From the IMG/VR virus record IMGVR_UViG_3300028925_005152, positions 126-64,125 of that record: a DNA stretch of 64,000 bases. One strand, 5' to 3'. Shown here one piece after another: positions 13,471 through 41,946 of this stretch. The number at the start of each line of letters is the position of its first letter. Position 1 is the first letter of the stretch. The position numbers were made by a program, and so were the translations under genes. The stretch is from a virus. Taxonomy: Duplodnaviria > Caudoviricetes. The notes under the pieces are model-generated. The model was not told the origin of the DNA and made no database searches. It was given only the letters and a program-made list of their open reading frames with translations.

Positions 13471-13917
13471 ATGGCATACAGTGGTAAATACCATCCAATT
13501 AACCCTAAAAAATATAAGGGTGACCCATCTAAAGTAATATATCGTTCACTTTGGGAACGTAAACTTATGGTGTATTGTGATAAGACCAAATCTGTATTAG
13601 AATGGGGTAGTGAAGAAGTCATTATTCCCTATGTATCGCCATGGGACGGAAAGGTGCATCGTTACTTTCCCGACTTTTATATGAAAGTTAAACAATCAAG
13701 TGGCAAGACCAAAAAGTTTATCATTGAAGTCAAACCAAAGTATCAGTGTAAACCTCCGGTCAAAACACCAAAACGAAAAACCAAAAGGTGGATGAGTGAA
13801 GTTAAGACTTGGGTTATCAATGAGGCAAAGTGGAAATCTGCAAATTTCTTCTGTGAAGCAAATGATATGGAATTTAAGATTTTAACTGAAGACCACCTTA
13901 ACATTAAGTATAAATAG
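13471..13917 (+). CDS. 4: Head completion nuclease gp4
   Basis: YRSLWE, WGSEE, HRYFPDF, IEVKP, NEAKW. Confidence 0.93.
   Translation: MAYSGKYHPINPKKYKGDPSKVIYRSLWERKLMVYCDKTKSVLEWGSEEVIIPYVSPWDGKVHRYFPDFYMKVKQSSGKTKKFIIEVKPKYQCKPPVKTPKRKTKRWMSEVKTWVINEAKWKSANFFCEANDMEFKILTEDHLNIKYK
13909..13916 (+). promoter_or_regulatory. T4-type late promoter
   Basis: TATAAATA just before the gp2 ATG. Confidence 0.75.
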
Positions 13918-20078: not shown

Positions 20079-20303
20079 CTATATCGGTAGTTGTGCTGAT
20101 TTTTCGACCAAGAAATTTAAATCTCTTGCATTTGCCTCAATTTTCTCTTTGAGGCCCTTAGTGATTAGTCTACCCACAGTTTCGGGTTCTATCTCGTTTT
20201 TCTGACAATACCAAACTACGGCATCCATATGAGTTATCCTTTTTTCTAAGGCAACCTTTTCAATTTCTAGTGAAAATGATTTAGGTGTTTGCATTTGTAG
20301 CAT
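20079..20303 (-). CDS. 33: Late transcription coactivator gp33
   Basis: FSLEIE...DAVVWYC...IEPE...LKEKIEANA-LNFL...LPI. Confidence 0.88.
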   Translation of the reverse strand: MLQMQTPKSFSLEIEKVALEKRITHMDAVVWYCQKNEIEPETVGRLITKGLKEKIEANARDLNFLVEKSAQLPI

Positions 20304-21356: not shown

Positions 21357-21917
21357 TCATTTTAGATTATATAAATCATTTAGTACATGTTGTATAGGGT
21401 CAATTTCATTCAACATTTCCAGAGCAGCTGATGTTGTTTCTTCTACTCTGCGAGTCCAACCCCGACCAAAAGTTTCAAAGGTATTTAACCTTTCATAATA
21501 CTTTTGTCTTCTGGATTGATATTCTGTAATCGTTTCTTTCAGACCAACACGTTCTACATAAGAATTGACTATGCGTATAGTATTAGGCCCGATTGCACCA
21601 TCAGAGGTTGCACCCACAAGTGTTTGTAGATACTTCGCAGCCCGACTAGTTCCAGCATTAACACCAAAATCAAACACACACAAATCAAGACCATTTGGTA
21701 AGTTATCACCTTTGACCCTTCCCCAATAATTCTTTCGATAGATAGGAGCAACATCTTCAACCGTTAGGTCTTTCATTTCTTTTTTACCACCCCAAGCATC
21801 ATATACTCTTTTAGTAACACCAAGATTAGTTTGCCCGCCGGGATCCTTTGGGTGATTTACATATCCACCTTCGTGGTGCAGAATCATGTCCAGACATTGT
21901 TGATAGTTTTTAATCAT
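21357..21917 (-). CDS. GH108 lysozyme with peptidoglycan-binding domain (endolysin candidate)
   Basis: HEGGYVNHPKDPGG-TNLGVT, FDFGVNAG, DGAIGPNT, FGRGW-RR. Confidence 0.92.
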   Translation of the reverse strand: MIKNYQQCLDMILHHEGGYVNHPKDPGGQTNLGVTKRVYDAWGGKKEMKDLTVEDVAPIYRKNYWGRVKGDNLPNGLDLCVFDFGVNAGTSRAAKYLQTLVGATSDGAIGPNTIRIVNSYVERVGLKETITEYQSRRQKYYERLNTFETFGRGWTRRVEETTSAALEMLNEIDPIQHVLNDLYNLK

Positions 21918-23918: not shown

Positions 23919-24479
23919 TCACCTTTCCCAACGATAAAATATGTGATCTCCAATCTCTATAGTTTTTGTTTTAGTCTTGGCCCAAGAAGGACTGACATAA
24001 TCTGCGTGGTAATGTGTAGCACCATCAGTTATATCTAACAAGACTACATTAGAAATTAATGCTATAGTTGCAAGCTCTGTAATATCTTTATATTGTTTTA
24101 TACTTCTTTTATTAATAGTGTCAGACTTACCATCACAATACCAACTAAACTGGCAACGATTACGAACAGGTATCAATTCGCCAGTGCCTTTCCAACTAGG
24201 TCTGTGTTCGCCTTGTTTAACAACTTCACATACTGTATTAGGAAATCGTGAATCTTTTACTCTATTCAAAGTAACAGCAATAACAGCATACCAACCGCCA
24301 GTGCTTTGATTTCGTGCCTCATGATATACATTGTCAGCAAGACAAGTTATTTCTTCTTGTGGTATATCAAAGTTTATTGTTTCATTATTTGTAAACATCT
24401 GTTCTGGAGCAGCAACAGAAAGACTTATCAAAACTACAAATTCAGTCAAGTTAATCATATTATATTTTTTTCCCAACAT
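23919..24479 (-). CDS. SleB/CwlJ-like cell wall hydrolase
   Basis: CLA-NVYHEARNQ, NRV-RFPNTVCEVV, CQFSW, GATHYHA-YV-P-W, IGDHIFY. Confidence 0.9.
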   Translation of the reverse strand: MLGKKYNMINLTEFVVLISLSVAAPEQMFTNNETINFDIPQEEITCLADNVYHEARNQSTGGWYAVIAVTLNRVKDSRFPNTVCEVVKQGEHRPSWKGTGELIPVRNRCQFSWYCDGKSDTINKRSIKQYKDITELATIALISNVVLLDITDGATHYHADYVSPSWAKTKTKTIEIGDHIFYRWER

Positions 24480-25068: not shown

Positions 25069-26229
25069 TTAAGACCTTAAATATCGAATCATTATTTCTG
25101 CAAGAGCTTTAAACCACCTTTCATCGTTACCTCTGGTGGTTTCTGCTGCAACTCCGATTCTAACTCCAGAGGTTTCAATAAAACCGCGAGTATCGTTAGG
25201 AACACCATTTTTATTTACAGTAATAGATTTTTGTTCTAGTAAATCTGCAAATTCACGACCACTATACTTTTCTTTATTCAAGTTAATAGTAAACATATGA
25301 GATTGTGTTCCACCAGATACTATTTCTACATCAGCATCTATGAATGTCTGTGCCATTATATTTGCATTAGCTATTACACGTTTAGTATATAACTGAAAGT
25401 CTGGTTGTAATGCTTCGTAGAAACATTGTGCTTTAGCGGCAATGATGTGCATCAGAGGCCCACCTTGAGTGCCGGGAAATACTGCACTGTTAATTTTATT
25501 ACTGTATTCTTTATCGTTCCACAAAATCATACCACCGCGAGGGCCTCGTAAAGTTTTGTGTGTGGTGGTGGTTGCAACATCTGCATAAGGAAATGGATTA
25601 GGATATGATTTACCAGCAATGAGTCCAGAGTAGTGACTGATATCTGCAAGTAAGATTGCACCTACCGAGTCTGCCATTTTTCTGAATCGTTTCCAATCAA
25701 TCACTCGACTATATGCACTTGCTCCTGCAATAATCATTTTAGGATTATTATCTAATACTAGTTTTTCTGCTTCATCATAATCAATAATTCCATCAGCATC
25801 AACGCCATAACTCTTAGTGACGAACCACTTACCACTTATGTTAACCTTCGCACCATGTGATAAGTGACCACCACTAGACAAGTCCATACTAACAATTAAA
25901 TCGCCGGGCGTTAAGAATGTTTTGAATACCGCAAGATTTGCATTTGCACCACTGTGAGGCTGAACATTTGCAAAGTTACAACCAAATAATTTAGTTGCGT
26001 ATTCAATGGCAAGGTCTTCTACCTTATCAACTTCATCGCAACCATTGTAGTATCTTTTGCCGGGCAAACCTTCTGCATACTTATTGGTTAAGATACTACC
26101 ACACAATTCCATTACTTCTGGACTAGTGAAGTTCTCACTTGCGATTAGTTCTACCGTATTAAATTGACGAGCAGCCTCAGCAGTTACTATTTGTTCAATG
26201 CGGGGGTCAATAAACTTCTGCACATTCAC
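25069..26229 (-). CDS. glyA: Serine hydroxymethyltransferase
   Basis: LIASEN, NKYAEG-PGKRYY, NVQPHSG, GGHLSHG, TTTHKTLRGPRGG (PLP lysine), FPGTQGGP. Confidence 0.97.
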   Translation of the reverse strand: MNVQKFIDPRIEQIVTAEAARQFNTVELIASENFTSPEVMELCGSILTNKYAEGLPGKRYYNGCDEVDKVEDLAIEYATKLFGCNFANVQPHSGANANLAVFKTFLTPGDLIVSMDLSSGGHLSHGAKVNISGKWFVTKSYGVDADGIIDYDEAEKLVLDNNPKMIIAGASAYSRVIDWKRFRKMADSVGAILLADISHYSGLIAGKSYPNPFPYADVATTTTHKTLRGPRGGMILWNDKEYSNKINSAVFPGTQGGPLMHIIAAKAQCFYEALQPDFQLYTKRVIANANIMAQTFIDADVEIVSGGTQSHMFTINLNKEKYSGREFADLLEQKSITVNKNGVPNDTRGFIETSGVRIGVAAETTRGNDERWFKALAEIMIRYLRS

Positions 26230-29519: not shown

Positions 29520-30113
29520 TTAGGATTTGTCAAGGGTCTTTTCTTTAATTGTTAAATTATTTAGGAAGAACTCCATGTAAAGGTCTTCATTAAGTATCTG
29601 ATAACCATTACTAGTGCCATAAGTTTTGATGTGAGTGTATATTCTTTTATGTGAGTATTTATTCCACATATCTACCCACCACTCGATAGGTTTTAGTGTA
29701 CAGTGTGCATTTTCTCCATTTGGTAAAATTGCAATAGCTGGTTGGGTGCTGATTGCAAGAAAAACAAATTTATCTGCTCTTTTAGAAATCATATCAAATG
29801 TTTCTGGAATTTGTTCTTCTGGAATGTGTTCCATTACATCAGTAGAGAATACTCCATCAAATGGGCCGTCAGGTAGTAGTTCAAACTCTGGTACTGCTGG
29901 GTCATACAAAGAGGGCATGACACCCATTTCTTCGTGATGTTTCCATTCAGAATATTGTTTACCCTTACCACAACCAAAATCTAGTAAAGTTTCTGGATTT
30001 ATGTCACGAATCAAGTCCATGATATGATGTAATTGTGGTTTTAAGTTATTGCCGGGATAATGAGTATTCCGGTCTGCGTGATAAGATTTATATTGTTCGA
30101 TCCACTCGTTCAT
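29520..30113 (-). CDS. Class I SAM-dependent methyltransferase
   Basis: LLDFGCGKG, YDPA, FDGV-STDVMEHIP. Confidence 0.85.
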   Translation of the reverse strand: MNEWIEQYKSYHADRNTHYPGNNLKPQLHHIMDLIRDINPETLLDFGCGKGKQYSEWKHHEEMGVMPSLYDPAVPEFELLPDGPFDGVFSTDVMEHIPEEQIPETFDMISKRADKFVFLAISTQPAIAILPNGENAHCTLKPIEWWVDMWNKYSHKRIYTHIKTYGTSNGYQILNEDLYMEFFLNNLTIKEKTLDKS

Positions 30114-30570
30114 TATTATGTATCCTCAAATGTTCTTTTAACATCTTTGAACTTCCTATTCTAACATTGATAATGCCATTATAGTATTCGTCAGACTCTA
30201 AAACCCTTCGATCAAATTGTTCTTTTGCTTCTAAGTAACTTAGTATTCCTCTACTCGAACAAAAGTATAAAATTTCTCTAGTGAATTTATCTTCACCGAA
30301 AGACAAAACATCAGCGTTTAAGTGGTCAGAAGAACCCCAATAGTCCTTCCAATCACTTTCTTTTGTTGAACGCCTTTTTCTTGTCTTACCTTTAAGTGGT
30401 GGTCTGGTAACTTTAAACCTCGCGAGCTTCTTACCAATATACTTTCTATTATTAGCAAGGTTGGTTATAAGATAGACAAATCCTTCACAACCTTCTGGAA
30501 GTTCTTGAATTATCTTACCATCATGTGTCCACTTTGTCGGAATTGGTAACAACCCCATCGCGTTTTTCAT
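30088..30570 (-). CDS. GIY-YIG endonuclease
   Basis: GFVYLITN-N-RKYIGKK, SDW-YWGSS, F-REIL, YYN. Confidence 0.85.
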   Translation of the reverse strand: MKNAMGLLPIPTKWTHDGKIIQELPEGCEGFVYLITNLANNRKYIGKKLARFKVTRPPLKGKTRKRRSTKESDWKDYWGSSDHLNADVLSFGEDKFTREILYFCSSRGILSYLEAKEQFDRRVLESDEYYNGIINVRIGSSKMLKEHLRIHNNERVDRTI

Positions 30571-30827: not shown

Positions 30828-32746
30828 TATTGAATTTCACAAAAACCAGCAACACAAGCTAATTCTTGAGCGCCAATTGTCATATCCTTTGATTCATATT
30901 CAGATAATTTAGACCAATCTACATTCTTAGGCATTTGTTTCAATAAAATGTCATACCCCTCTTTATCGGTATCTTGATAAGGCGCTTGTTGATATGAATG
31001 TTCACTAAATGGTAAGAATGATACTCCAGACATGTAATCAAAATATTTGTAAACCCATGCGCCAACTTCCATCCATTCTTCTTCTTTAACGGAAATTGTA
31101 ACGGAAGGCTTGTGCTCACACCAATGTTTTTGGTATATTAACCACAATTCTAATTGTTCAATTGCGTTCATATCTTGTCTGAATACTGCGCCTCTATCTA
31201 CTTTATGAGGAAAAGAGAACACAGCAGTATTGCTTGGATTTATTACATCATCTTCAACAGGGAAACCTTCGTCTGTCATCATCAAAGTAAGTGGATCCTT
31301 TTTATCACCGCGAACTGTGCGTATGTAGTAAGGATTGTGACGAGCATGAATACCAGATGCAGAATTAACTAGCTGTGATACTGTACCACTTGGTTTGACA
31401 CAAGTAATTGCTACAGATTGTGGAATGTCTAATTTCTTAGACCAAATTTTATTAGTGTCTATTGCGACATTTTTAAGTTTTTCAAGTAATACATCAAGAC
31501 CTTTTGACTTACCATTTGTTAACTTACAATCCATAATACCTGTTAGAGATACACCAAGTAGTCTTTCTTCTGAACAATTTTTCTTCCATGCGGCACTAAC
31601 ATACTTGAAGTTAGTCAAAGTTGATTGGAATGTACCAAGAATGGCAGCCAGTCTTACTTTCTCTATTAAAGTTTCTTCAGTATCATTCGATCTGATAACT
31701 GCTTCACTTAAATTGCAAAATTCTCTATCTCGCAATATTATCTCGCTGCAAGGATTTACGCCAAAGTGGTGCCCTTCGGTGGTTCTACGACCACTAGCTT
31801 CGGCTATTCTGTTAGCACTTTCACGATTAAAGATACCACGTTCTCCAGATTTAGATTCATAGAGTGCGTTCCACTCACTCATAAAGATACCCATTTCTGG
31901 TTTCTCTGTATAACAAGCAGAGTTATTAGCTAAGGCGCGTTGAGGATTTTCTGTCCACCATTGTCCAGATTTAGCATGACGCATACGATCATCTGAAAGA
32001 TTTGAAAGACTAATGAGAGCAGACCTACGAACACCGCCAACTACCACTACTTCAGCAATTTTACAAACAATGTCATGACATTCTAGTGAGGACAACTTAC
32101 GTCCAGCAGAACTACCAAGTACATTGACTACAAAATTAAATAATGACTCTAGTGGTGCAGGGCCCGAAGCACGACCACCAAAAGTTTTAAGTGGAGCACC
32201 AGCAGGACGGATTTTAGATAAATCCCATCGTGGAATCTGACCAATATACAACATACCCATCAGTTCTTTAAATGCTTTTGCCCAACCCATTTTACTATCT
32301 GCAACAGTAATAACAGTATCAGATGCATGGAACTCCTCTGCTACTTTTGGAAGTTCAGATGTAAATTGTCTTTCAACAGAAAAACCAACTCCAGTTCCAT
32401 TCATAAGAACATAAAGGATTTCATCAAACGCTTGAATACGATTTACTGCAACGTATGAGCAATTGTATCCAGCGATGTTCTCCCTCTTGAGCGCCTCTCC
32501 TGCGGTCATTAAGCAACGCATAGAGGGCATAACTTTTTGTCCTAGTACGGCAAGTTCAAGTTCATCTCTATCTTTTTTTGTAATTTCAAATCCTGTCATT
32601 TCCTGTACATGAACATCAAAGAAATCAAAGTATCTTGAAACAGTTTCATTCCAAGTTTCTCTGCGACCTTTTTCTGGTAGCCATCGAGAGTATCTTGATA
32701 GGTGAATGAATTCTTGGTATGAGGTTGGTAAAAAATTATCGGGCAT
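30827..32746 (-). CDS. nrdJ: Class II (B12-dependent) ribonucleotide reductase, RTPR-type
   Basis: YNCSY, GTGVGFS, VVVGGVRRSA, NPCSEI, TCVKPSGTVS, C-terminal CVAGFC; no nrdB adjacent. Confidence 0.92.
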   Translation of the reverse strand: MPDNFLPTSYQEFIHLSRYSRWLPEKGRRETWNETVSRYFDFFDVHVQEMTGFEITKKDRDELELAVLGQKVMPSMRCLMTAGEALKRENIAGYNCSYVAVNRIQAFDEILYVLMNGTGVGFSVERQFTSELPKVAEEFHASDTVITVADSKMGWAKAFKELMGMLYIGQIPRWDLSKIRPAGAPLKTFGGRASGPAPLESLFNFVVNVLGSSAGRKLSSLECHDIVCKIAEVVVVGGVRRSALISLSNLSDDRMRHAKSGQWWTENPQRALANNSACYTEKPEMGIFMSEWNALYESKSGERGIFNRESANRIAEASGRRTTEGHHFGVNPCSEIILRDREFCNLSEAVIRSNDTEETLIEKVRLAAILGTFQSTLTNFKYVSAAWKKNCSEERLLGVSLTGIMDCKLTNGKSKGLDVLLEKLKNVAIDTNKIWSKKLDIPQSVAITCVKPSGTVSQLVNSASGIHARHNPYYIRTVRGDKKDPLTLMMTDEGFPVEDDVINPSNTAVFSFPHKVDRGAVFRQDMNAIEQLELWLIYQKHWCEHKPSVTISVKEEEWMEVGAWVYKYFDYMSGVSFLPFSEHSYQQAPYQDTDKEGYDILLKQMPKNVDWSKLSEYESKDMTIGAQELACVAGFCEIQ

Positions 32747-33734
32747 TTCGTCTTCTCCATTGTGTGAATTTTATCTTGGCCATGTTGCCTTGATAAGAAT
32801 TATTGTTTATTATTGTCTGTACTTCTTCTTTAGTAAGTCCAGATAGTATCATATCGTTTATATCTTTTTCTTTCAAATCATCAGGCCATAACACTACATT
32901 ATAACCCATGTATATTGTCTTCTCTATTTGTTTCAATATCTCGACATTGCGTCTTTCGTTATCAAAAATAATAGTTGTATTCTCTACAGGTAATCTACTA
33001 AAATCAGCACCACCGACAGCAACACAATTGTCCAAAAACATAGAGTCAATGGGCCCTTCGGTTACTTGTATTGGTTTTGTAGAGTCTAGTCTATTAAGAC
33101 CGTAGATTTTATCTTTGTCTGGGTCAAGAGTGATGGTAATATACTTTGGTATTTCATTACCAAATGCCCTCCCTTGAAACGCAAACATTTTACTATTCTC
33201 ATCAAAGAATGGAATTACCAATCTAGGGTGATCCCCATTCAAAGAAGCGAATTTGTTAGGTACAACAGTATTGACCCAAGTATAAAACTTTGGAGCAAAG
33301 AACAACTCAAAATGAACTGTAGAAGGGATTTGTCGATTCATCACAAATTTCTTAACAGGATGGTCATGACTTAATGACGATATCTTTTTAAGTGATTTGA
33401 GTGGTGAAGGCCCCTTCATGAATTTAGGTTGAGTGAATTTTCCAATGTCTGGAAGTTCTGGTTCATTCTTTTTGTATCTCTCCATTATATAGTCATTGTA
33501 AATTTTAGGGTCAATGTGTTTCAGTAAATTACTGAACGATGCTCCTACGCCACAGTTATGACACTTATATATAAGATTCAATTCTTTACGGAAAATAAAA
33601 CCACGAGCTTTGGTAGAAGACTTTTGAGAATCTCCACAGTAAGGACAACGAAAATTGTACAGGCAGTCTCCTGTCTTTTTAAATCGCTGCAATTGCGATG
33701 ACGCAATCATTAGATATTTTTTTTCTATATACAT
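32736..33734 (-). CDS. 61: DNA primase gp61
   Basis: CPYCGDS...CHNC Zn finger, FQGR, TEGPIDS, FDNE-RN, KDIND; likely start MYIEKK. Confidence 0.95.
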   Translation of the reverse strand: MYIEKKYLMIASSQLQRFKKTGDCLYNFRCPYCGDSQKSSTKARGFIFRKELNLIYKCHNCGVGASFSNLLKHIDPKIYNDYIMERYKKNEPELPDIGKFTQPKFMKGPSPLKSLKKISSLSHDHPVKKFVMNRQIPSTVHFELFFAPKFYTWVNTVVPNKFASLNGDHPRLVIPFFDENSKMFAFQGRAFGNEIPKYITITLDPDKDKIYGLNRLDSTKPIQVTEGPIDSMFLDNCVAVGGADFSRLPVENTTIIFDNERRNVEILKQIEKTIYMGYNVVLWPDDLKEKDINDMILSGLTKEEVQTIINNNSYQGNMAKIKFTQWRRRNAR

Positions 33735-33740
33735 GGTGTA

Positions 33741-33769
33741 ATTATAACTCAATTAGAGGTAGATGTCAA
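33741..33769 (-). promoter_or_regulatory. sigma70-like promoter for primase
   Basis: TTGACA-N17-TATAAT. Confidence 0.7.
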
Positions 33770-34179
33770 CCCCAAATAGGCATTTTTTGAATAATAAATC
33801 CGAGTACTATAGAACCACCGATAATTATCCAACGCCACTTTTCAAGAATACCAACTCGGTTGTTTAGGTCGTCCCTAAGCATCTGTTGATTGATAGCATC
33901 TTGTTTACTATGTTCTGACATTATATCAGTAAGTTCTTTATAGTTTGTAGTAATACGAGAGTGTAGTTCTCTAATGTCTGTTGTAAATTCTAAATTGGCA
34001 CGATTAGCAACTTCTTCTTGATTAGCTATCCTTTCTTCATGCACAGCCAACATACGATTGACCGATGAAGACACATCAGTAATCCTTTCAATAGCGGTAT
34101 CAAGACGATTAAATATTAATTTTATATCAGCAACTTCTTTTTTAAGAATTGCCACCTCTGTTGTGATTTCATTACTCAT
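33766..34179 (-). CDS. Coiled-coil protein with C-terminal TM
   Basis: LAVHEERI...LEKWRW-IIGG. Confidence 0.65.
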   Translation of the reverse strand: MSNEITTEVAILKKEVADIKLIFNRLDTAIERITDVSSSVNRMLAVHEERIANQEEVANRANLEFTTDIRELHSRITTNYKELTDIMSEHSKQDAINQQMLRDDLNNRVGILEKWRWIIIGGSIVLGFIIQKMPIWG

Positions 34180-34210: not shown

Positions 34211-36061
34211 CTATGTATCTACGATATTGTCAATAGGTGAATAAATTTTAATAAGTTCCTCTTTACCCTTAACTTTAATCTCACCAATATTTTTACTTGG
34301 CATAGTATCAGGTAGTTGTTCCATAGTATAACTAGAATAGATTGTTGGATAATCTTTATAATCTCCTCTAGCGGCAGTTGCTTCTAATCGTGCAGCAAGG
34401 TTGACAGAATCACCAATGACTGAATAGTCAAATCTGGTGGTACTACCCATATTGCCTACAATACATGTTCCTGTATTAACACCACTACCAATATTAATCT
34501 CTGGTAATCCTTTCTCTTTCCACGCAGTCTTTAGGTTCTCAGTTTCTATTGCACACTCCACAGATGTACGAACCGCTAACTCTGCATGGTTCTCACAATC
34601 TAATGGTGCGTTCCAGAAAGCCATGATGCAATCGCCCATGTATTTATCAACCGTACCACCATTATTCAATACTATCTTGGTCATGCGGTCTAGGTAATCA
34701 TTGATACACTCAACTAATCCTTCTGGGTCATCATTGTTCTTATAGTGTTCTGATATAGGAGTGAATCCAACAATGTCCATAAAGAGAAAACTCATCTCTC
34801 TGCGTTCACCACCAAGTTTCAGTGCGTCTGGATTCTTCTGTAAAATAGCAACCTGTCGTGGATCAAGGTAATGTTCAAATTGTTTCTTAATCTGTTGGCG
34901 TAATCTAAATTCTTCCATAAACCGCAGAAATGCAGAAACAGACCAAACTACAAACATTGTCAATACAGGATATGACCAATCAATTAGGTAGCTGTATTCA
35001 GTAAATAAGTATGAACTGCCGTAATAAGTCCCTGCAAGAAATATTGGTAATAGTGTTGCACCAACATACCAACTTAGTGTTAACACCACTACTGTTAGTA
35101 TCAATGATAACACTAAAGACACTGAAAGCTCTGCTAAATCAGTCCAGAAGGGTCTTGTGATGTTCCTTCCTGCAATCATAGTTGTTACAGAGGCAGCAAT
35201 CAAATCGTGACTTGGAATTACACCCACTGGGGTTGCAACTGGATTATCTATTCCAGATGCCGTAGGTGAAAGAATAACAATCTTTCCTACAAATGAATCA
35301 TCGTCTGTTAATTTGTTTAGTGCATAGGTTTTTGTTTTCCATTTGAAATCAATCCAAATAGCACCATTGGCATCAGTCAGTATCTTTTTGTATTTTGGTA
35401 TGCGTAATGCTTCCACACCACCCTCACCAGTTTTCATCTGATAACTAATATCTCCAGCAGCTGTTCTTAGTATCTCCATAGACAGAGATGGATACAGTTG
35501 TCCATCTATTTGAATCACCAAAGGCATCCTACGAACCACACCATCATTCTCTGGAGCAATAAGCATCATACCAACACCTATTGCAGATTTTGAAAATGGT
35601 TCTATGGGGCCGACTGCACCACTATAATTGTATATCCATTGTTGCCAAGGCATACCTATCGCGGCAACACCTCTGGGTACAGGATTTCCTTTAGTTTGAT
35701 TTGCTGGGATTTGTCCTATGATGGTTGGAGTTTTTCTCAACATCTCATCAAATTGTGCATCACCACCTAATCTATCTTTGTCTGCAAACAATATGGGTAA
35801 TACAACAATTGAAGCACCCTTGCGATATAGACTTTCAATGTCCTTTGCAAGTTTATCTCTTGGCCAAGGCCACTGACCATATTCTCTTACCGAAGCATTA
35901 TCTATTTCTACTGTCACGACATCAGGAGCGATTGTTTCTTGTTGTGTTCTTTGATGTTGGTCTAGTGCTTTCAACCTTACCATCTCAAAGAACCAAAGGT
36001 CTGAAAAACGAATAACACAAAAGAATAAAATAACAGAAATAGCTATAATCCACTTTTTCAT
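34211..36061 (-). CDS. CHASE2-domain class III adenylate cyclase
   Basis: N-terminal TM; CHASE2 (GQWPWPR, DGVVRRMPL); three TMs; FMDIVGFT, DKYMGDCIMAFW, GNMGS-DYSVIGDSVNLAARLE. Confidence 0.95.
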   Translation of the reverse strand: MKKWIIAISVILFFCVIRFSDLWFFEMVRLKALDQHQRTQQETIAPDVVTVEIDNASVREYGQWPWPRDKLAKDIESLYRKGASIVVLPILFADKDRLGGDAQFDEMLRKTPTIIGQIPANQTKGNPVPRGVAAIGMPWQQWIYNYSGAVGPIEPFSKSAIGVGMMLIAPENDGVVRRMPLVIQIDGQLYPSLSMEILRTAAGDISYQMKTGEGGVEALRIPKYKKILTDANGAIWIDFKWKTKTYALNKLTDDDSFVGKIVILSPTASGIDNPVATPVGVIPSHDLIAASVTTMIAGRNITRPFWTDLAELSVSLVLSLILTVVVLTLSWYVGATLLPIFLAGTYYGSSYLFTEYSYLIDWSYPVLTMFVVWSVSAFLRFMEEFRLRQQIKKQFEHYLDPRQVAILQKNPDALKLGGERREMSFLFMDIVGFTPISEHYKNNDDPEGLVECINDYLDRMTKIVLNNGGTVDKYMGDCIMAFWNAPLDCENHAELAVRTSVECAIETENLKTAWKEKGLPEINIGSGVNTGTCIVGNMGSTTRFDYSVIGDSVNLAARLEATAARGDYKDYPTIYSSYTMEQLPDTMPSKNIGEIKVKGKEELIKIYSPIDNIVDT

Positions 36062-36062
36062 T

Positions 36063-36854
36063 TTAATTTCCTTGTGTCAAGGATACACCACAACCGCCAG
36101 ATGATTGACAGTTCTGTGTTAGAGAGTATGATTGATTTGTACCACCTTGTTGAACCAAATTCAAATTAGTAGGATAACTGCCGGTTAAATCTACAGTAGC
36201 AGTATGTGTTCCACTGTCTTTTTGAACAACAGATTGTGAACCACCATCAGTCCTTACAGTCATATATAAGGTTTTGTTACCATTTCCGTTTTGTTTAACA
36301 AACATATTATTATTTTCTCCACCGTATGTGTATAGTCGAATAGAATGGTCTGCATTACCTGATCCTGTTTGTTGTCCTATCTTGATATTATTTCCACCAG
36401 AATGTAGGTCTAGGTTAGTTGTGTGACCACCATACTCTGATGTAGTTCCAGAACAAGTTGTATCAGAGCTACTAGTAAAGGTTGCGCCCTGACAGACATG
36501 AACATTATTATTATTGCTTTTTATATGAAATCCAACTCTGTTTGAATCAGAACCATTGGTGTTGTTCTGTTCAATTTTTATATTGTTATTTACTCCGTCC
36601 AAGTCACCACCCCAAGCTCGACCAGAACCCCAGTAGGAAATCCAACTGACTGTGTTATTGTTTCCTTCTTGGTCAATATCAAGTGTGTTGTCGTCATGGG
36701 CCATTGTTAAATTGACAGCGTTGTTCTGGCCATCTTGACTGACATTTATTGTTGTATCATCACTGGTAGTAATTTGTTCTATGAATACACTGTTTCCAGC
36801 ATAAACAATACTACTCAGACTGATAGATAGTAATAGTGTTATCAGTTTCATCAT
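36063..36854 (-). CDS. Curlin-like secreted repeat protein
   Basis: Signal peptide; repeats INVSQDGQNN, LDIDQEGNNN, VKQNGNGN, LVQQGGTN. Confidence 0.75.
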   Translation of the reverse strand: MMKLITLLLSISLSSIVYAGNSVFIEQITTSDDTTINVSQDGQNNAVNLTMAHDDNTLDIDQEGNNNTVSWISYWGSGRAWGGDLDGVNNNIKIEQNNTNGSDSNRVGFHIKSNNNNVHVCQGATFTSSSDTTCSGTTSEYGGHTTNLDLHSGGNNIKIGQQTGSGNADHSIRLYTYGGENNNMFVKQNGNGNKTLYMTVRTDGGSQSVVQKDSGTHTATVDLTGSYPTNLNLVQQGGTNQSYSLTQNCQSSGGCGVSLTQGN

Positions 36855-37899
36855 CGGATGTTATCTCTGGTACAGGTATTCCCTGTTGTGTTAAATTAAT
36901 TCTATATCCCCAATCTGCATTTAATCTTAAATGAATATTACCATTTCCCACTTGACGAATTATCTCAAGTCGCGAACCATCACGAATCGTATTAACTTGA
37001 GTTGATTTATTGAAACCGCTTGTCCTACCATCTACCAGTTCTCTCTGAGCGGTTAGTGCAATTAATTGGTCTAGCACATTCATTAATAAATCAACATCTA
37101 AAGGATTAATGTCTAGTTCAGTAAATTCTAATTTATCTTCGTCTAATTGGTTTTTGTCTAACTCTCTAAATTCTAAAAAATCTATGTCTAATAAGTTTAT
37201 TGTAATTTTAGAACTTTTAATTATTTTTAAAAGTTTTTCTTTGGGTGGTTTAATAATTAACAAATTATTAATTTGGTCTAAAGTTAAATCAAGTATAACT
37301 GGCTTTGAGGGATTAGATTCTCCATTTATAACTAATGTAGATTCAAATGCTTGGGTTAGAAAAACCTGTCCTGCATCACTTTCTACTGATATCTTACCCA
37401 CTGTTCCATCTGCATTGGGAAGTAGAATAATGAGAGACTTTCCAACCTCATCAACAGTCATACTAAAAGCAGTTCCAAGAACACCTATTCGTGCAGTTGG
37501 AGTGCGAATATCAACATTCTGAGAATTTAGTTTTGCAATATTACCACTTGCATATCTAACTGTTCCCAGTGCAACATTCATTACAAGTTTAGACCCTGTT
37601 TTAGAATTTGGGTCATACACAAAATCATCTATTACTAATGAGCTATGTGGACTTATTGCCACATTTGTATCATCAATAAATTTTATTCCAACATTACCAT
37701 TTCCTGTACGGACATTATCTTTGTATTCAATGGCAGAGTTTTCTTCTAAAACAAGTTTATTCTCTGCCCTTTCTACCGAAGCATTGCCTTTTTGTTTTAC
37801 TACATTACCAATAGTTTCCGATAAAACAATATTGTTAACCGAAATCAATAGTGTAAAACTAATCGTCCATAGTAACCGTAACATTGTGTCCTGCCCCAA
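36811..37899 (-). CDS. FecR-domain periplasmic protein
   Basis: Signal peptide; D-VRTG, FIDDT, S-LVIDDFVYDP, G-VRYASG-IAK, TPTA-IGVLGT-F. Confidence 0.88.
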   Translation of the reverse strand: MGQDTMLRLLWTISFTLLISVNNIVLSETIGNVVKQKGNASVERAENKLVLEENSAIEYKDNVRTGNGNVGIKFIDDTNVAISPHSSLVIDDFVYDPNSKTGSKLVMNVALGTVRYASGNIAKLNSQNVDIRTPTARIGVLGTAFSMTVDEVGKSLIILLPNADGTVGKISVESDAGQVFLTQAFESTLVINGESNPSKPVILDLTLDQINNLLIIKPPKEKLLKIIKSSKITINLLDIDFLEFRELDKNQLDEDKLEFTELDINPLDVDLLMNVLDQLIALTAQRELVDGRTSGFNKSTQVNTIRDGSRLEIIRQVGNGNIHLRLNADWGYRINLTQQGIPVPEITSDDETDNTITIYQSE

Positions 37900-38542
37900 C
37901 AGTTGTCATCTGAACAGTACCATCATAAGCACCATCCTGTGTAATACTGAACTGACCAGATGCTCCTGTATGATGCAAGGTTGTATCTTGATCTGCTGCT
38001 CCAGTGTGTGTAGAAGTGACCGTATTAGAGTTACCTATTAACGTAATACTTGTTACTTTCTTATCACTACCCGCTAGTGATGCGGTACTGTTTTCATTGA
38101 TGGTGACGGTATTGCTATCACCTTGAGCAACCAAATCAATATCTGCATCATCAGTTGAAGCCGAACTACCTACATTAACAGTAGTTGTGTTTGAACTACC
38201 TGTAAGCGTTTGAATAATACTGTTGTCAGCAGACGCTGAGTTTGCACCAACCGATACAGTAGATGCATTACTATTACCAGCTTGTCTAAGAGTAAACTGT
38301 TGAGTTGCACCAACTACTGATGCTGCAATTGTGTTACTATTACCAATCTGGTCAATGTCTAGTGTTTGGTTATCACCTGTTAAAGTGACCACCGTTCCAG
38401 AAACACCAAACTTGTTGGTTTGTCCGTCTTGATTAATATTTGCAGTAAGGCTTGCACCTGACTGTGTAATGTATACATCGCTCGCATAACCCACACTCAT
38501 CATAACAAAGTAAGCGAGAATTGTAAGTATGCTATTTTTCAT
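37859..38542 (-). CDS. Curlin-like secreted repeat protein
   Basis: Signal peptide; Q-x-G-x-x-N repeats (NQDGQTN, DQIGNSN, RQAGNSN, AQGDSN). Confidence 0.75.
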   Translation of the reverse strand: MKNSILTILAYFVMMSVGYASDVYITQSGASLTANINQDGQTNKFGVSGTVVTLTGDNQTLDIDQIGNSNTIAASVVGATQQFTLRQAGNSNASTVSVGANSASADNSIIQTLTGSSNTTTVNVGSSASTDDADIDLVAQGDSNTVTINENSTASLAGSDKKVTSITLIGNSNTVTSTHTGAADQDTTLHHTGASGQFSITQDGAYDGTVQMTTVGAGHNVTVTMDD

Positions 38543-38552
38543 TTTATCTCTC

Positions 38553-39335
38553 CTATTTGAGTTTCCATAATGCGTTTTCTATTCCTCTTTCAATCAATTG
38601 GTTTACTGCGTGTTCTATTGCTTTACGAACCGCATAAGTTGTCGATTCATTCTCAGTAGTTCCAGCTTCAATTTCGATTAATTCAGTACCCATATCTAAA
38701 AACTTAAATACATTCATACCAACTTTAGTACTTAATATAGTCTTTTGTGAACTTACCGCAAGTAACACCTCACCAGTTTGTACAGATATTAATCGTAATG
38801 AAACCGATACCATATCTCTACGATATTGGTCACGAATACCTATACCTAAATATCTCGAACCAACACCACCTGTTTCTATATTGGTATCGTAACCAATGAT
38901 ACCACCACTTATAAGAACACCAGCAAACAATAAAGGTCTAACTTTTTCTGACTTATCTCCGTCATAAGTTGCTCTTGTGTTTCTTATGATTTGTCGTTCC
39001 TTTAAAAGATAGTCTAAATCCATCCTTTCAACAACAGTAAACCATTCACCATTACCCGCAGTTTTAAGTGCTTGTACTAATAATGTTCCTGATCCCTGTG
39101 TGACTGCTGTGCTTAATGAGGCAAGGTTGTCACTGGGCTTTCTTTGACCTGTTTGGTCATTAAACTGGTAAACAGCAATCTCAACCTTCCTTTCGGGGGG
39201 TCGATAATTTTTTAACTTGTTCGTCATTGGTGTAGATGTGGCTGTTTCCATCACTTCGTATGTTGTACAACCACCTAAACTAAAAAGTAAAATCACCAAT
39301 AGGAACTGTAATAACTGTTTCACTTCCATTTGCAT
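38553..39335 (-). CDS. csgG: Curli secretion channel CsgG
   Basis: Lipobox LGGC; AVYQF-DQTGQRKP, STAVTQG, WF-VVER-L-LLKERQIIR, GGIIGYD, TGEVL. Confidence 0.95.
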   Translation of the reverse strand: MQMEVKQLLQFLLVILLFSLGGCTTYEVMETATSTPMTNKLKNYRPPERKVEIAVYQFNDQTGQRKPSDNLASLSTAVTQGSGTLLVQALKTAGNGEWFTVVERMDLDYLLKERQIIRNTRATYDGDKSEKVRPLLFAGVLISGGIIGYDTNIETGGVGSRYLGIGIRDQYRRDMVSVSLRLISVQTGEVLLAVSSQKTILSTKVGMNVFKFLDMGTELIEIEAGTTENESTTYAVRKAIEHAVNQLIERGIENALWKLK

Positions 39336-39726
39336 CCAATATTGTTAATGCTACATTGTCTGTATCTTTAATATAGCTGATTGTAGTACCCTCAAATGTG
39401 ACTGTTCCATTCTGATTGGAATTTTCTCCAAACATACTATCCACAAGTTGTTTCGACAGTTGAGCGTAAATTCTTGATTCTACATTCTTTATAAACTTTG
39501 ACTGATTTGTATTTGCAAGATTTCTCTCAAGTTCTCTAGCAGCTGCTGCTTTCTTTTCTTTGTTTGCTTTCACACGAGAATATTCTTGATTCTCGATAGT
39601 AAGAACATGGGAACTATATCCCACTCCACTGAAGGCAGGAGAAACCCACTGGTGAGTCAGGTCAGTAGAATTAGCGTTCATACTAAAAAATACTATTAAT
39701 ATAGTTATTAGACTATGAATTTTCAT
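39280..39726 (-). CDS. csgF: Curli assembly protein CsgF
   Basis: Signal peptide then L-HQW-SPAFSG-G, F-NVESRIYAQLS-QL, G-ETVITVP; next to csgG. Confidence 0.85.
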   Translation of the reverse strand: MKIHSLITILIVFFSMNANSTDLTHQWVSPAFSGVGYSSHVLTIENQEYSRVKANKEKKAAAARELERNLANTNQSKFIKNVESRIYAQLSKQLVDSMFGENSNQNGTVTFEGTTISYIKDTDNVALTILDANGSETVITVPIGDFTF

Positions 39727-40037
39727 TAGCCCTTCTTCCCCCTCTTTCCTTCTTTGTGTAATTGTTCGGTTTCAAGTTTTTCTTTAATTTCGTCTTGTAG
39801 TTTGTCTTTTTCTCTGTATTCCAAAACAACATTTACCTTTTGTTGCAATCGTATCATATCATTATCTAACATACGATTTTGGTCTATACATTTTATGAGA
39901 GCCATGTGCATTGCATCTAACTCTGGTTGAATGTTATTACTAATAAATGCCCATATGTAATATATGAAATATCCCATACCGACAGCCATAACAACTGGAA
40001 ACCCAAATTCAGCAATTAGTGTTCCTATGTCTTGCAT
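39726..40037 (-). CDS. Single-TM coiled-coil protein (holin-like)
   Basis: LIAEFGFPVV TM; paralog of the upstream gene. Confidence 0.6.
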   Translation of the reverse strand: MQDIGTLIAEFGFPVVMAVGMGYFIYYIWAFISNNIQPELDAMHMALIKCIDQNRMLDNDMIRLQQKVNVVLEYREKDKLQDEIKEKLETEQLHKEGKRGKKG

Positions 40038-40330
40038 TAATCTCGCCTCACATCAAGCTTACCATCTTCTTTGAAGTTTTCAGCACGAGCAATACGATTA
40101 ATGTCGGGAGTCACTCCTAAAGCAGAACTAACTAATAAATCAATTTTTATCAACTCATTACATCCCACTCTCGCACGATCTTCGAGCATTTTACAAAACA
40201 TAGTCAGAGTTTTTATTTGGTCAATTATACCTTCAAGTATTTGTTTTAATACCATGAATATAAAAAATCCCATTAATATTGCTACCGCAATTGGAACTCC
40301 GACTTCAGCAATTAGAGTAAATACATCCAT
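40037..40330 (-). CDS. Single-TM coiled-coil protein (holin-like)
   Basis: LIAEVGVPIAV TM. Confidence 0.6.
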   Translation of the reverse strand: MDVFTLIAEVGVPIAVAILMGFFIFMVLKQILEGIIDQIKTLTMFCKMLEDRARVGCNELIKIDLLVSSALGVTPDINRIARAENFKEDGKLDVRRD

Positions 40331-40351
40331 AGCTTACAGCCTCTTTTTAAC

Positions 40352-40359
40352 TATTTATA
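40352..40359 (-). promoter_or_regulatory. T4-type late promoter for the curli/cyclase operon
   Basis: TATAAATA on the minus strand. Confidence 0.75.
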
Positions 40360-40405
40360 AGATTCGGAAAGGATACTTGGTATATATGGGATAAAATGGT
40401 GCCGA

Positions 40406-40443
40406 TAAAAAAGTCTCCATTAAAAATAACAGAGACTTTATTT
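40406..40443 (-). terminator. Possible terminator
   Basis: AAAGTCTC/GAGACTTT inverted repeat with a T-run on the minus strand. Confidence 0.45.
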
Positions 40444-40462
40444 CGTATTTAAGTTGTGGTAA

Positions 40463-41068
40463 TTACTTAACTTTAGCGTTTACTTTGCGGTGTTTGTTCC
40501 ATGCAGCGAACCCACCTAATCTTAATGCCCAATATGCGAGATAGTTCATGACTTTAAATCCATTGATTTCTATATTTATATCTCTAAACATCTTATCAGA
40601 TTCTTTTTGTGTAAGCTTACCATAAGTACCTTTTGCATTTTTCTTCAGTGTTTCATATTTATACGCATAGTCATGGACTAGTCCACCCATCAACAGAACT
40701 CCTGTTGGGGATAACCATGTGTGTAAAAACTTAGGAATAGATGCACCATCAAACTGAAACCCTTTAGGGATTATGTATTGAACTCCATTAAGCTTAAATA
40801 CAAACTTCTTTGCGATTATCCAATTACGACTTCCGGTCATCCACATCCAGATTGCACCCCAAAATCCTTTATCCTTTGTTGCAATAGGAATAGGTATCAT
40901 GTGTGGCATTTCTGAATATTCAAACACATGGGAATCTTTACAAAGACATTCCTTGTCATCAAACAAATTAATAATCCAACCAATAATAATTATAATACCA
41001 ACAACTGTAAACTGCCACCATGTGACTAGTTGTTGTAGAATAAAGTCTGTTATTTCAATCTGTGTCAT
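40463..41068 (-). CDS. DUF1353-like membrane-anchored protein
   Basis: IPKGF-FDGASIP, LVHD-Y, SD-MF, LRLGG-W. Confidence 0.8.
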   Translation of the reverse strand: MTQIEITDFILQQLVTWWQFTVVGIIIIIGWIINLFDDKECLCKDSHVFEYSEMPHMIPIPIATKDKGFWGAIWMWMTGSRNWIIAKKFVFKLNGVQYIIPKGFQFDGASIPKFLHTWLSPTGVLLMGGLVHDYAYKYETLKKNAKGTYGKLTQKESDKMFRDINIEINGFKVMNYLAYWALRLGGFAAWNKHRKVNAKVK

Positions 41069-41472
41069 TTGTCCGTTTCCCCTATTGCTGTTGGTGCTAC
41101 AGCACCCTCATAGTAAACAATAATTTGTTTTTGTTGTTCTATGTAACGTCTTAATTCTGAGAAATTTAAACTCAAATTCTCATAGTCTTTTACAGATAAA
41201 GCAATGTATGCATCAGCACCATTCTTTTTCTCAAAATCTGATATAAACTTATCATAGTTTAATTTTGAAACTACATAAATTTTTACATCATTAAGCTGTA
41301 CTTTCTTTGGGTGTGTTGCTATTGGAACAGTTGTTTTAACAGTATTAGTTACTGTTATTACTTTCGATTCCGGCAGATACTTGCTCATCATGCTGCACCC
41401 CGACAGTATTGTCAGTGAGAGCAGTAAGATCAACCCATAACTTATTTGTCGCATTTTGCATCCTCTTTTCAA
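41065..41472 (-). CDS. Outer-membrane lipoprotein spanin (Rz1-like)
   Basis: Lipobox LSGC; overlaps the 3' end of the upstream TM/coiled-coil gene. Confidence 0.7.
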   Translation of the reverse strand: MKRGCKMRQISYGLILLLSLTILSGCSMMSKYLPESKVITVTNTVKTTVPIATHPKKVQLNDVKIYVVSKLNYDKFISDFEKKNGADAYIALSVKDYENLSLNFSELRRYIEQQKQIIVYYEGAVAPTAIGETDK

Positions 41473-41782
41473 TCAGCCCCGGCTTCTTATTTGCTAAGTG
41501 GGTTAGATTGTGTTTCTGTAATGTAGATCGGAGTTCATCTCCGTATTTTTCTGCTTGTTGCAAACTAGCTTGTAGTTTAGAATTTAGTTTTGCATTTTGA
41601 ACTGCACTTTCTTCAAGTGTCTTAACACTTGCTTCACTAATCTGCACAGCAACTTCTAGTTTTGCATTGTTTTCACGCAATGTCGCTATCGTTGCTTGAG
41701 TTGTATCATAGTAATACTTAGCACTCAAACCAGCAGCACTAATGATTCCCACTAAAATAATTATTGCATATAATTTAAACAT
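41345..41782 (-). CDS. Inner-membrane spanin (Rz-like)
   Basis: N-terminal TM, coiled coil, KPGLIE motif. Confidence 0.7.
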   Translation of the reverse strand: MFKLYAIIILVGIISAAGLSAKYYYDTTQATIATLRENNAKLEVAVQISEASVKTLEESAVQNAKLNSKLQASLQQAEKYGDELRSTLQKHNLTHLANKKPGLIEKRMQNATNKLWVDLTALTDNTVGVQHDEQVSAGIESNNSN

Positions 41783-41784
41783 AT

Positions 41785-41946
41785 TTATTCAGATTTCCAA
41801 ATTGACCATGCGCCATAAGCAATCGCTCCGTATGCAGCAAGTGAAGCAAAAGGGCCTGCTATGAGTATAACTACACCGACTACAATCAACGCAGCTCCAT
41901 TCCAAGTAGTTCTTTCTTCTACTCTATCCTTTACCCAATCAATCAT
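41785..41946 (-). CDS. Small two-TM protein (holin candidate, 53 aa)
   Basis: Hand-translated MIDWVKDRVEERTTWNGAALIVVGVVILIAGPFASLAAYGAIAYGAWSIWKSE. Confidence 0.6.
   Translation of the reverse strand: MIDWVKDRVEERTTWNGAALIVVGVVILIAGPFASLAAYGAIAYGAWSIWKSE

Follow-up and report, generated by a model that had tools for sequence, protein, structure and literature searches.

A phage-borne gene block joining curli secretion, a FecR-fold protein and a CHASE2 adenylate cyclase as a candidate envelope-sensing module

We analysed a 64,000-nucleotide stretch of viral DNA (hereafter the window; positions 126 to 64,125 of IMG/VR record IMGVR_UViG_3300028925_005152) that carries a block of eight genes encoding curli secretion proteins, a FecR-fold protein and a membrane adenylate cyclase with a CHASE2 sensor domain. 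The block is almost certainly the viral curli-FecR-cyclase module published for marine pelagiphages. Its architecture was already described in 2022, and our additions are its origin from two modules, the missing canonical receiver of cyclic AMP (cAMP) and a set of corrected annotations. By its gene content the phage set joins two alphaproteobacterial modules, csgF-csgG and a FecR/CHASE2-cyclase pair. We tentatively propose, at somewhat short of an even chance, that curlin export is coupled to a single sensor formed by the FecR-fold protein and CHASE2.

The eight open reading frames (ORFs) lie on the minus strand between 34211 and 40330 and are tightly packed, with intergenic gaps of at most 10 nucleotides (nt) or overlaps. 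They run in the order tm1 and tm2 (two small membrane proteins), csgF, csgG, cur1 (curlin-like 1), fecR, cur2 (curlin-like 2) and the CHASE2 cyclase (Table 1). A preliminary description of the sequence had placed these eight genes behind the T4-type late-promoter motif TATAAATA; all of them were found where it had put them, and its gene identities were supported by Pfam, PHROG, profile and structure comparisons. The fecR gene sits between the two curlin genes, overlapping both, and is one gene upstream of the cyclase, with cur2 between. A Shine-Dalgarno site follows the motif. Further upstream, a terminator-like hairpin lies between a DUF1353 gene and the block; its RNA fold reached −16.9 kcal/mol (z −4.53) and none of 200 shuffles was as stable. 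A consensus scan for sigma-70 promoters and terminators showed no enrichment in the window and missed this hairpin. On the 3′ side of the cyclase, sigma-70-like promoters precede the DUF7201 gene and the primase. The block thus looks like a separate late unit, one compact transcription-unit-like block, and we infer its late timing from the motif itself.

Seven marine metatranscriptome runs from two studies contain small shares of the stretch (0.06-0.07), and four of these runs were examined closely. In study one, RNA-library contigs that are ~91-92% identical to the window span the cyclase/cur2, cur2/fecR and tm2/tm1 junctions. In study two, near-identical short RNA-library contigs span the fecR/cur1 and cur1/csgG junctions. 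Parts left uncovered in these runs, for example 37800-39600 in study P1, carry no meaning.

We compared the block with published phage systems, drawing here and below on parts of each paper's text. Wittmers et al. 2022 (mSystems, PMC9599517) described CsgF, CsgG, a CsgA/B protein, FecR, a second CsgA/B protein and an adenylate cyclase in podoviral and myoviral pelagiphages, preceded by one or two proteins labelled histidine kinase, and reported an ocean-wide distribution and metatranscriptome hits for the set. The window has the same genes in the same order, on a T4-like marine myophage, a carrier of the module besides HTVC023P-type podophages, and likewise has no CsgE. Zaragoza-Solas et al. 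2020 (PMC7029224) had earlier given a partial description of csgF/csgG in marine myophages, and Buchholz et al. 2022 (PMC9004378) modelled CsgG/F of phage Melnitz and proposed a role in lysis timing. Together with the annotated copies of the module in HTVC008M (KC465899) and Melnitz (MZ577097), these reports bear out the statement in the preliminary description that csgF and csgG occur in marine myophages. Its further statement, that no characterised phage system has the full architecture, holds for experimental characterisation, but the architecture itself had been described (PMC9599517). CHASE2 is not mentioned in the text of PMC9599517 on which we drew, and the main text of PMC7029224 and PMC9004378 mentions no cyclase, FecR or CHASE2. 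None of the papers found on phages and CHASE2 dealt with a phage CHASE2 cyclase in its title or abstract, and among those found on SAR11, adenylate cyclase and cAMP, PMC9599517 alone was relevant.

The window covers nearly all of the 64,125-base record, whose estimated completeness is 42%, and is a fragment of a T4-like marine myophage. Its T4-type genes encode a family B DNA polymerase, gp32, a gp33-like late-transcription coactivator and gp53-type and T4 baseplate proteins; it also encodes primase, a DnaB-like helicase, a RecA/UvsX-like protein, RNase H, PhoH and a class II ribonucleotide reductase, and its G+C content is even (0.32-0.39). Pelagibacter phage HTVC008M and Methylophilales phage Melnitz, both related to this phage, are its nearest isolates and keep the same gene order in the block, although their proteins are only ~40-55% identical to those of the window. 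The surroundings differ as well. In the window the block lies between spanin genes and the DUF7201 and primase genes, whereas in HTVC008M and Melnitz it lies next to gp32/oxygenase and tail genes. A tmRNA and a riboswitch have been described as neighbours in Melnitz; both are absent from the window, where Rfam and tRNA scans gave no matches.

In the secretion core, CsgG matched E. coli CsgG (3x2r) at E 9.5e-47 over residues 11-259, nearly its full length, and is ~47-51% identical to alphaproteobacterial CsgG from Rhizobium, Sphingobium, Bosea and Azospirillum. The CsgF homologue covers positions 4-132 of the 132-position Pfam profile, and phmmer gave no match at E < 0.1 between it and solved CsgF structures. 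The two curlin-like proteins were harder to place. A single-sequence Pfam search left both below the cut-off (Curlin_rpt E 0.011 for Cur2 and 2.7 for Cur1). Profiles were therefore the main evidence, built from 22 and 30 sequences (the window's protein with 21 and 29 viral homologues): that of Cur2 matched the Pontibacter curli subunit 8c50 (E 4.2e-9) and E. coli CsgA 8enq (E 3.9e-5), that of Cur1 matched 8c50 (E 2.7e-4), and the two families are homologous to one another (hhalign probability 99.7%, E 2.6e-27). The Cur1 model is all-beta, with a predicted local distance difference test score (pLDDT) of 83.3 and a predicted template modelling score (pTM) of 0.81. VIA-align ranked 8c50 first for it (Z 19.6, root-mean-square deviation (rmsd) 8.3), with many generic beta-helices at Z 10-17, and Foldseek returned nothing at E ≤ 0.001, CsgA standing at rank 32. 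We accept Cur1 and Cur2 as curlin-family proteins, Cur1 with less certainty.

CsgG, CsgF and secreted curlin-repeat proteins are common to the phage block and to bacterial curli systems (E. coli csgBAC-csgDEFG; alphaproteobacterial csgH-csgF-csgG). The phage differs in having longer, divergent curlins and no CsgE, CsgC or CsgD-type regulator that we could see. CsgE (PF10627) and CsgC (PF10610) gave no matches at E up to 1 in the six frames of the 64-kb record, which represents ~42% of the genome, and no CsgD-like (LuxR/GerE-type) match turned up among the 82 ORFs covered by the family scans of the window, as the preliminary description had it. At CsgG residues ~66-78, the E. coli loop KPYP-ASNFSTAV aligns with KPSDNLASLSTAV in the phage protein. 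The constriction of E. coli CsgG, which we take to be formed by Tyr/Asn/Phe, is replaced by Ser/Ser/Leu in this alignment, and the phage channel may be wider or differently lined.

The FecR protein was divided into its parts by an alignment of 39 sequences (the window's and 38 viral homologues) and a structural model. A signal peptide is followed by a well-modelled FecR domain (~30-212), by a conserved acidic LD(I/V)DFLEF segment (~214-290) that is modelled as disordered and has a net charge of −7, and by a small C-terminal beta domain (~295-360) that ends in an invariant I-x-I-x-Q. With the model as query, Foldseek found 4m0h and 6ovk at E 4e-5. VIA-align matched the N-domain to PupR (6ovm; Z 15.6, rmsd 2.6 over 135 residues) and to BDI_1681 (4m0h; Z 14.5), the next unrelated structure scoring 5.5. 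For the C-terminal domain, profile matches to the PDB were weak (E 0.009 or worse) and the best VIA-align Z was 3.8, so no fold or family was assigned; its last strand resembles the first strand of both curlins. The periplasmic FecR fold is shared with the PupB-PupR and FecA-FecR-FecI systems, where the domain contacts an outer-membrane protein. Those regulators have a cytoplasmic anti-sigma domain and a membrane anchor, whereas the phage protein has neither, its FecR domain following directly after the signal peptide. No family of extracytoplasmic function (ECF) sigma factors or TonB-dependent transducers was found among the scanned window ORFs either. Because the anti-sigma part, the sigma factor and the transducer are all missing from the window, we describe the product as a FecR-fold protein and not as a FecR regulator.

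These features of CsgG and FecR bear on the idea of an ungated uptake pore, in which CsgG without CsgE admits nutrients or cofactors and FecR hints at iron. The absence of CsgE in six frames would suit such a pore, as would the Ser/Ser/Leu aligned to the presumed Tyr/Asn/Phe constriction, and it has been proposed in the passages of PMC7029224 (Zaragoza-Solas 2020) and PMC9599517 (Wittmers 2022) that deal with these genes. It leaves unexplained CsgF, two curlin-repeat proteins under purifying selection and the cyclase, and the generic periplasmic interaction fold of FecR, with neither its anti-sigma part nor its usual partners seen, provides no tie to iron. We regard this reading as very unlikely.

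The last gene encodes a predicted adenylate cyclase with a full set of catalytic residues. Membrane helix 1 (4-22) is followed by CHASE2 (~23-308), three more hydrophobic helices (~312-382) and the catalytic domain; helices 4-22 and 312-330 exceeded the hydropathy threshold and the other two were judged by eye. From this arrangement CHASE2 is predicted to be periplasmic and the catalytic domain cytoplasmic. Among solved structures, the best match was to the P. aeruginosa CyaB catalytic domain (3r5g, E 6.4e-34). The enzyme has the metal-binding D429 and D477 as well as K473, N554 and R558, and these residues are conserved in 64-65 of 65 sequences (the window's and 64 viral homologues). The metal Asp residues and the N-x-x-x-R motif noted in the preliminary description are thus intact, but its adenine-type K/D specificity pair is actually K/S: the second specificity residue is Ser547, which aligns to a Thr of CyaB and is equally conserved (64-65 of 65). 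The Asp that had been meant is probably D545, two residues upstream. The enzyme therefore looks class IIIb-like with a Lys/Ser and not a Lys/Asp pair; the class IIIb label and the residue roles (substrate Lys, transition-state Asn/Arg, purine-specifying position) are those we assume for this enzyme class.

The block is led by two paralogous small membrane proteins without an assigned family. As described previously, each has a single transmembrane segment, and they share 31% identity over 70 amino acids (aa) (E 2e-10) and membership of phrog_18771; for tm1, no Pfam or NCBIfam family was matched. They correspond by position alone to the proteins labelled histidine kinase by Wittmers et al., a label that our tests did not support. 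We looked for a HisKA/DHp domain with a phospho-acceptor His and for HATPase_c: at 97 and 103 aa, neither protein matched a kinase family at E up to 10, none of the 43 family members did at E up to 1, and their alignment has no conserved His column. Five of these 43 members match YvrJ below threshold (best E 0.057), and the nearest named Atlas clusters of tm1 and tm2 are YvrJ (0.86) and Holin_BhlA (0.85), both under the 0.9 line for a lead.

Having characterized the individual proteins, we surveyed the gene neighbourhood in other phages. Cyclase relatives occur on at least 598 viral stretches; of the 80 loci kept, 30 extend 5.5 kb or more upstream of the cyclase gene. Among these 30 eligible loci, csgF, csgG, fecR and the cyclase are colinear in 28, and 26 of the 28 have tm1 and tm2 in front. 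The other two are rearranged with all parts still adjacent: the cyclase is divergent in L017 and comes first in L042. The order is kept across roughly 45-85% protein identity, in agreement with the view that the cluster is conserved as a unit. When compared to three close relatives (83-85% cyclase identity), the ratio of nonsynonymous to synonymous substitution rates (dN/dS) was 0.12-0.13 for cur1, 0.15 for fecR, 0.09-0.16 for cur2 and 0.12-0.13 for the cyclase, and these four genes are thus under purifying selection (0.09-0.16). We also observed a variant form of the module in two loci (L044 5617-7974, L046 5574-7970), whose FecR homologues have roughly double the length (785 and 798 aa) and in which tm1/tm2 were not detected.

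Bacterial relatives of the parts were found apart from each other. Full-length homologues of the CHASE2 cyclase (~23-33% identity) are common on alphaproteobacterial plasmids and chromids. We took eight loci, the annotated ones among the top 25 rows, skipping a second Ruegeria, a second Phyllobacterium and unannotated rows. A FecR-domain gene lies beside the cyclase in all eight, with PF04773 confirmed in each: directly upstream on the same strand in six, convergent in one, and divergent with a small TPR gene between in one. CsgG was found in none of the eight. Conversely, three alphaproteobacterial csgG loci, the closest plasmid-borne ones at 47-49% identity, contain csgH, csgF and csgG and have no FecR or cyclase gene within 6 kb, nor were tm1 or tm2 seen in the bacterial curli operons examined (0/3). 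FecR/cyclase pairs without csgG, and csgG loci without FecR or cyclase, mark the phage block as a chimera of two bacterial modules; the absence of FecR and cyclase from bacterial curli operons in the text of PMC9599517 agrees with this two-module origin. When bacterial contigs were searched with the FecR profile (one peptide pattern, small reach), ten loci came up, of which two were FecR-only and eight were phage-type modules including tm1/tm2, binned in metagenome-assembled genomes (MAGs) whose titles name unrelated taxa (Flavobacteriaceae, Luteolibacter, Pelagibacter, Saprospirales, Sphingobacteriales, Planctomycetaceae and an unnamed bacterium). We read these eight as phage contigs and not as bacterial counterparts, and among the ten loci no bacterial counterpart of the whole block was found.

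The bacterial pairs share their cyclase architecture with the phage enzyme, which is alignable with them over its full length. They differ in that a Crp/Fnr or cyclic nucleotide monophosphate (cNMP)-binding gene is nearby in four of eight, with none found in the phages, and in the acidic segment and C-terminal domain, which are particular to the phage FecR protein. Two pairs, L094 (Ensifer) and L097 (Shinella), adjoin NHLP-bacteriocin export genes, a second case of such a pair beside polypeptide export. The recurrent pairing bears out the link of CHASE2 sensors with FecR-type proteins in Proteobacteria, as does the Burkholderia BiofilmReg operon, which encodes a response regulator, a LysM-FecR protein, a CHASE2 histidine kinase and DUF4136 and has been linked to biofilm formation (PMC5192318). 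There, the gene for an exported FecR-domain protein adjoins that for a CHASE2 sensor, a combination shared with the phage; unlike the phage block, BiofilmReg has a histidine kinase/response regulator output, a LysM domain on its FecR protein and no curli genes. A working relay from envelope to cAMP is known in S. meliloti; its outer-membrane component, NsrA, may itself carry a FecR domain. Without NsrA, the CHASE2 cyclases CyaK and CyaD1/D2 do not respond to an external protein signal, and the Crp-type Clr acts downstream of them (PMC7529298, PMC13001267); the outer-membrane partner there is NsrA and not CsgG.

From these comparisons we propose the following model. Late in infection the phage would install a CsgG-CsgF channel in the host outer membrane and, lacking a CsgE gate, would export the two curlin-like beta-solenoid proteins through it to the cell surface. 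The FecR-fold protein would stay in the periplasm as an accessory partner of CHASE2, as its bacterial counterparts presumably do, and set the activity of the cyclase according to an envelope cue, with cytoplasmic cAMP as the output. Because the fecR gene sits between and overlaps the curlin genes, the cue would most likely come from the load or export state of the curlin subunits, or else from the state that the CsgG channel is in. The likeness to PupR, in which a domain of the same fold binds an outer-membrane transducer, supports this model. Such a relay would run from the CsgG pore or the curlins via FecR to the cyclase.

Several observations weigh against the proposed coupling. First, the viral loci that we counted were chosen via the cyclase, which biases them toward linkage, and the frequency of cyclase-free curli genes cannot be derived from them. 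Podoviral versions of the module more rarely have the cyclase and second curlin, and FecR and cyclase are not always present (PMC9599517, in the text on these phages); such sets indicate that the curli core can stand without the sensor. The late-promoter motif is not enriched in the window (10 copies found versus 7.4 expected, with 20 of 100 shuffles reaching 10); this chance-level count means that only its position counts, and of 32 related loci only 13 have the 8-mer in the 120 nt before tm1. The RNA-library contigs show presence and prove neither transcription nor a single transcript. The link of Cur1 to E. coli CsgA is weak (8enq profile E 0.1, Foldseek E 1.8). Finally, the C-terminal domain of FecR was tried as a curlin and rejected, since hhalign gave a probability of only 4-6% and aligned only the last 9-12 residues.

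These points lead to the question of whether the two halves of the block merely share a location, the curli proteins forming fibres or a pore while the FecR/CHASE2 cyclase raises cAMP on a periplasmic or external cue unrelated to curli. The bacterial pairs without a type VIII secretion system (csgG in 0/8), the bacterial csgG loci without FecR or cyclase (3/3) and the podoviral modules that often have no cyclase (PMC9599517, same passages) all fit such independence, as does the displacement of the cyclase relative to the rest in L017 and L042. It is at odds with the interleaving of fecR between the curlin genes, with an order that is the same in 28 of 30 loci despite the wide range of protein identity, and with the adjacency of all parts in both rearranged loci. 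We consider independent functions unlikely, though worth keeping in view.

A simple hijacking of host control by the cAMP receptor protein (CRP), as independent functions might imply, is further argued against by 61 sampled genomes (0.8-1.6 Mb each) from a SAR11-type family, the one to which a MAG titled Candidatus Pelagibacter belongs. The receptor search was limited to canonical cNMP-binding domains (PF00027), and such a domain was present in 2 of the 61, leaving 59 in which no canonical cAMP receptor was found. A class III cyclase domain was present in three of the 61, and in two of the three the similarity to the phage enzyme extends over the full length (38% and 33% identity). These two may themselves be phage DNA, since one of them adjoins a homologue of the window's o-spanin: on contig L104 (G014:C1:9893-13417), the CHASE2-cyclase homologue (33%) is directly followed by this o-spanin-like homologue (25%, E 1e-13). 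On the phage side, PF00027 was not among the matches for the 82 window ORFs and occurred in none of five related phage genomes (HTVC008M, Melnitz and three relatives that are 62-85% complete). If the host is SAR11-like, cAMP would seem to have no obvious receiver on either side, which also counts against our model.

The preliminary description had suggested that the block times lysis or senses superinfection, and a similar role was argued from Melnitz synteny by Buchholz et al. (PMC9004378, in the text on that phage): in that reading, lysis would come at a time fixed by the CsgG/F pore, tm1/tm2 and the cyclase in response to events in the envelope. The late-type promoter motif agrees with this, and an i-spanin/o-spanin pair (phrog_739, phrog_812) and a 53-aa membrane protein do lie 0.7-1.6 kb upstream in the window; the sub-threshold likeness of tm1/tm2 to YvrJ and BhlA-type holin clusters (leads only) and the o-spanin homologue after the cyclase on L104 point the same way. 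However, a search by tblastn, which fast-diverging spanins may escape, detected homologues of the spanins and of DUF1353 in none of 82 related phage loci (28 of them reaching 2.2 kb or more upstream of tm1) and in one of the 10 MAG-binned loci. A strong hairpin terminator stands between the spanin genes and the operon, and in HTVC008M and Melnitz it is gp32 or oxygenase genes that precede the block. The likeness to holins reaches no threshold, and CsgG, being in the outer membrane, cannot depolarise the inner membrane. The link to lysis is therefore weak, and we judge a lysis-timing or superinfection device improbable. Aggregation of infected cells had been raised as well; clumping of Melnitz-infected cells was not seen by Buchholz et al. 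(PMC9004378, in the part on infection).

A bolder version of the sensor can be drawn, to which we give an equally slim chance. In it the FecR N-fold would hold CHASE2, and the acidic segment of ~75 residues and the C-terminal domain would engage the ungated CsgG-CsgF channel or curlin fibres, so that surface events (fibre assembly, sibling contact or a second phage) switch cAMP in a phage-built trans-envelope device. Because SAR11-type genomes are largely without class III cyclases and CAP-type receptors, the receiver would be phage-specific, possibly tm1/tm2, and cAMP would act as a private second messenger for late decisions such as lysis timing.

Our preferred model remains the more modest one, in which FecR and CHASE2 sense curlin export. 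The cassette takes up ~6 kb of a streamlined phage genome, its cyclase occurs in at least 598 viral stretches and its genes are under purifying selection, and so it must pay for itself. If FecR-CHASE2 does read the curli machinery, this would be the first phage-encoded envelope-to-cAMP pathway and would offer a handle on the ligand logic of CHASE2, still an open problem in bacteria. With canonical cAMP receptors and cyclases nearly missing from the sampled SAR11-type genomes, the question of the messenger's target becomes sharper.

Table 1 Positions of the gene block, its signals and other features of the window.
Feature	Position	Strand	Details
tm1	40037..40330	-	97 aa; one N-terminal membrane helix (~10-28), helical tail ending DGKxDxRRD; phrog_18771 E 2.5e-21
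tm2	39726..40037	-	103 aa; conserved GFP motif, membrane helix, DRxRMLDNDxIRL; phrog_18771 E 1.9e-26
CsgF homologue	39280..39726	-	signal peptide; PF10614 E 4.2e-18; phrog_35372 E 3.6e-44
CsgG homologue	38553..39335	-	lipoprotein (LGGC lipobox), predicted outer-membrane secretion channel; PF03783 E 1.7e-57
Curlin-like 1 (cur1)	37859..38542	-	227 aa; signal peptide, then G(N/D)SN / Q-x-G repeats; beta-solenoid model
Exported FecR-fold protein	36811..37899	-	PF04773 E 8.6e-7; likely true start ATG at 37884
Curlin-like 2 (cur2)	36063..36854	-	263 aa; signal peptide, Q-x-G-x-x-N repeats, conserved C-terminal Cys pair, end VSLTQGN
Membrane receptor adenylate cyclase (predicted)	34211..36061	-	CHASE2 PF05226 E 1.5e-40 (residues 11-322); class III PF00211 E 2.8e-17 (422-604)
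T4-type late-promoter motif TATAAATA	40352..40359	-	21 nt before tm1 ATG (40330)
Shine-Dalgarno site AAGAGG	40340-40345	-	between TATAAATA and ATG at 40330
Terminator-like hairpin	40403..40445	-	13-bp stem then UUUUUU, between upstream DUF1353 gene and operon
DUF1353 membrane protein	40463-41068	-	phrog_1158, labelled 'tail assembly chaperone'; after spanins
o-spanin-like lipoprotein	41065-41472	-	phrog_812; overlaps i-spanin; likely lysis cassette
i-spanin-like protein	41345-41782	-	phrog_739; likely lysis cassette
53-aa membrane protein	41785-41946	-	likely lysis cassette
Sigma-70-like promoter of DUF7201 gene	34233-34205	-	TTGACA-17-TATACT
DUF7201 coiled-coil protein	33766-34179	-	C-terminal membrane helix; directly after cyclase
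Primase	32736-33752	-	behind perfect TTGACA-17-TATAAT (33769-33741)
SegE-type GIY-YIG endonuclease	30088-30570
Serine hydroxymethyltransferase, full length	25069-26229	-	PF00464 E 1e-143; auxiliary metabolic gene
Two cell-wall hydrolases	21357-21917 and 23919-24479	-	GH108 with PG_binding_3; Hydrolase_2 (SleB-type)
gp33-like late-transcription coactivator	20079-20303		PF16805
TnsA-like endonuclease N-domain ORF	13471-13917	+	bracketed by three TATAAATA motifs (13429, 13453, 13909)
Zeta_toxin/AAA_33 kinase-like domain ORF	9374-10039	-	E 5e-10
NifU/IscU-like and IscA-like Fe-S assembly genes	4983-5396 and 6530-6838	-	PF01592 E 7e-54; PF01521
DNA C5-cytosine methylase (61946-63142), methyltransferase, Asn-synthase/QueC-like ORF	61231-63960	-	adjacent genes

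Outside the block, either of the two cell-wall hydrolases could be the endolysin of the phage. The TnsA-like and SegE-type genes are possible mobile endonuclease genes, and the cytosine methylase, the methyltransferase and the Asn-synthase/QueC-like ORF together could form a DNA modification cluster. Next to the block, the order cyclase, DUF7201 gene and primase recurs in 11 related loci.

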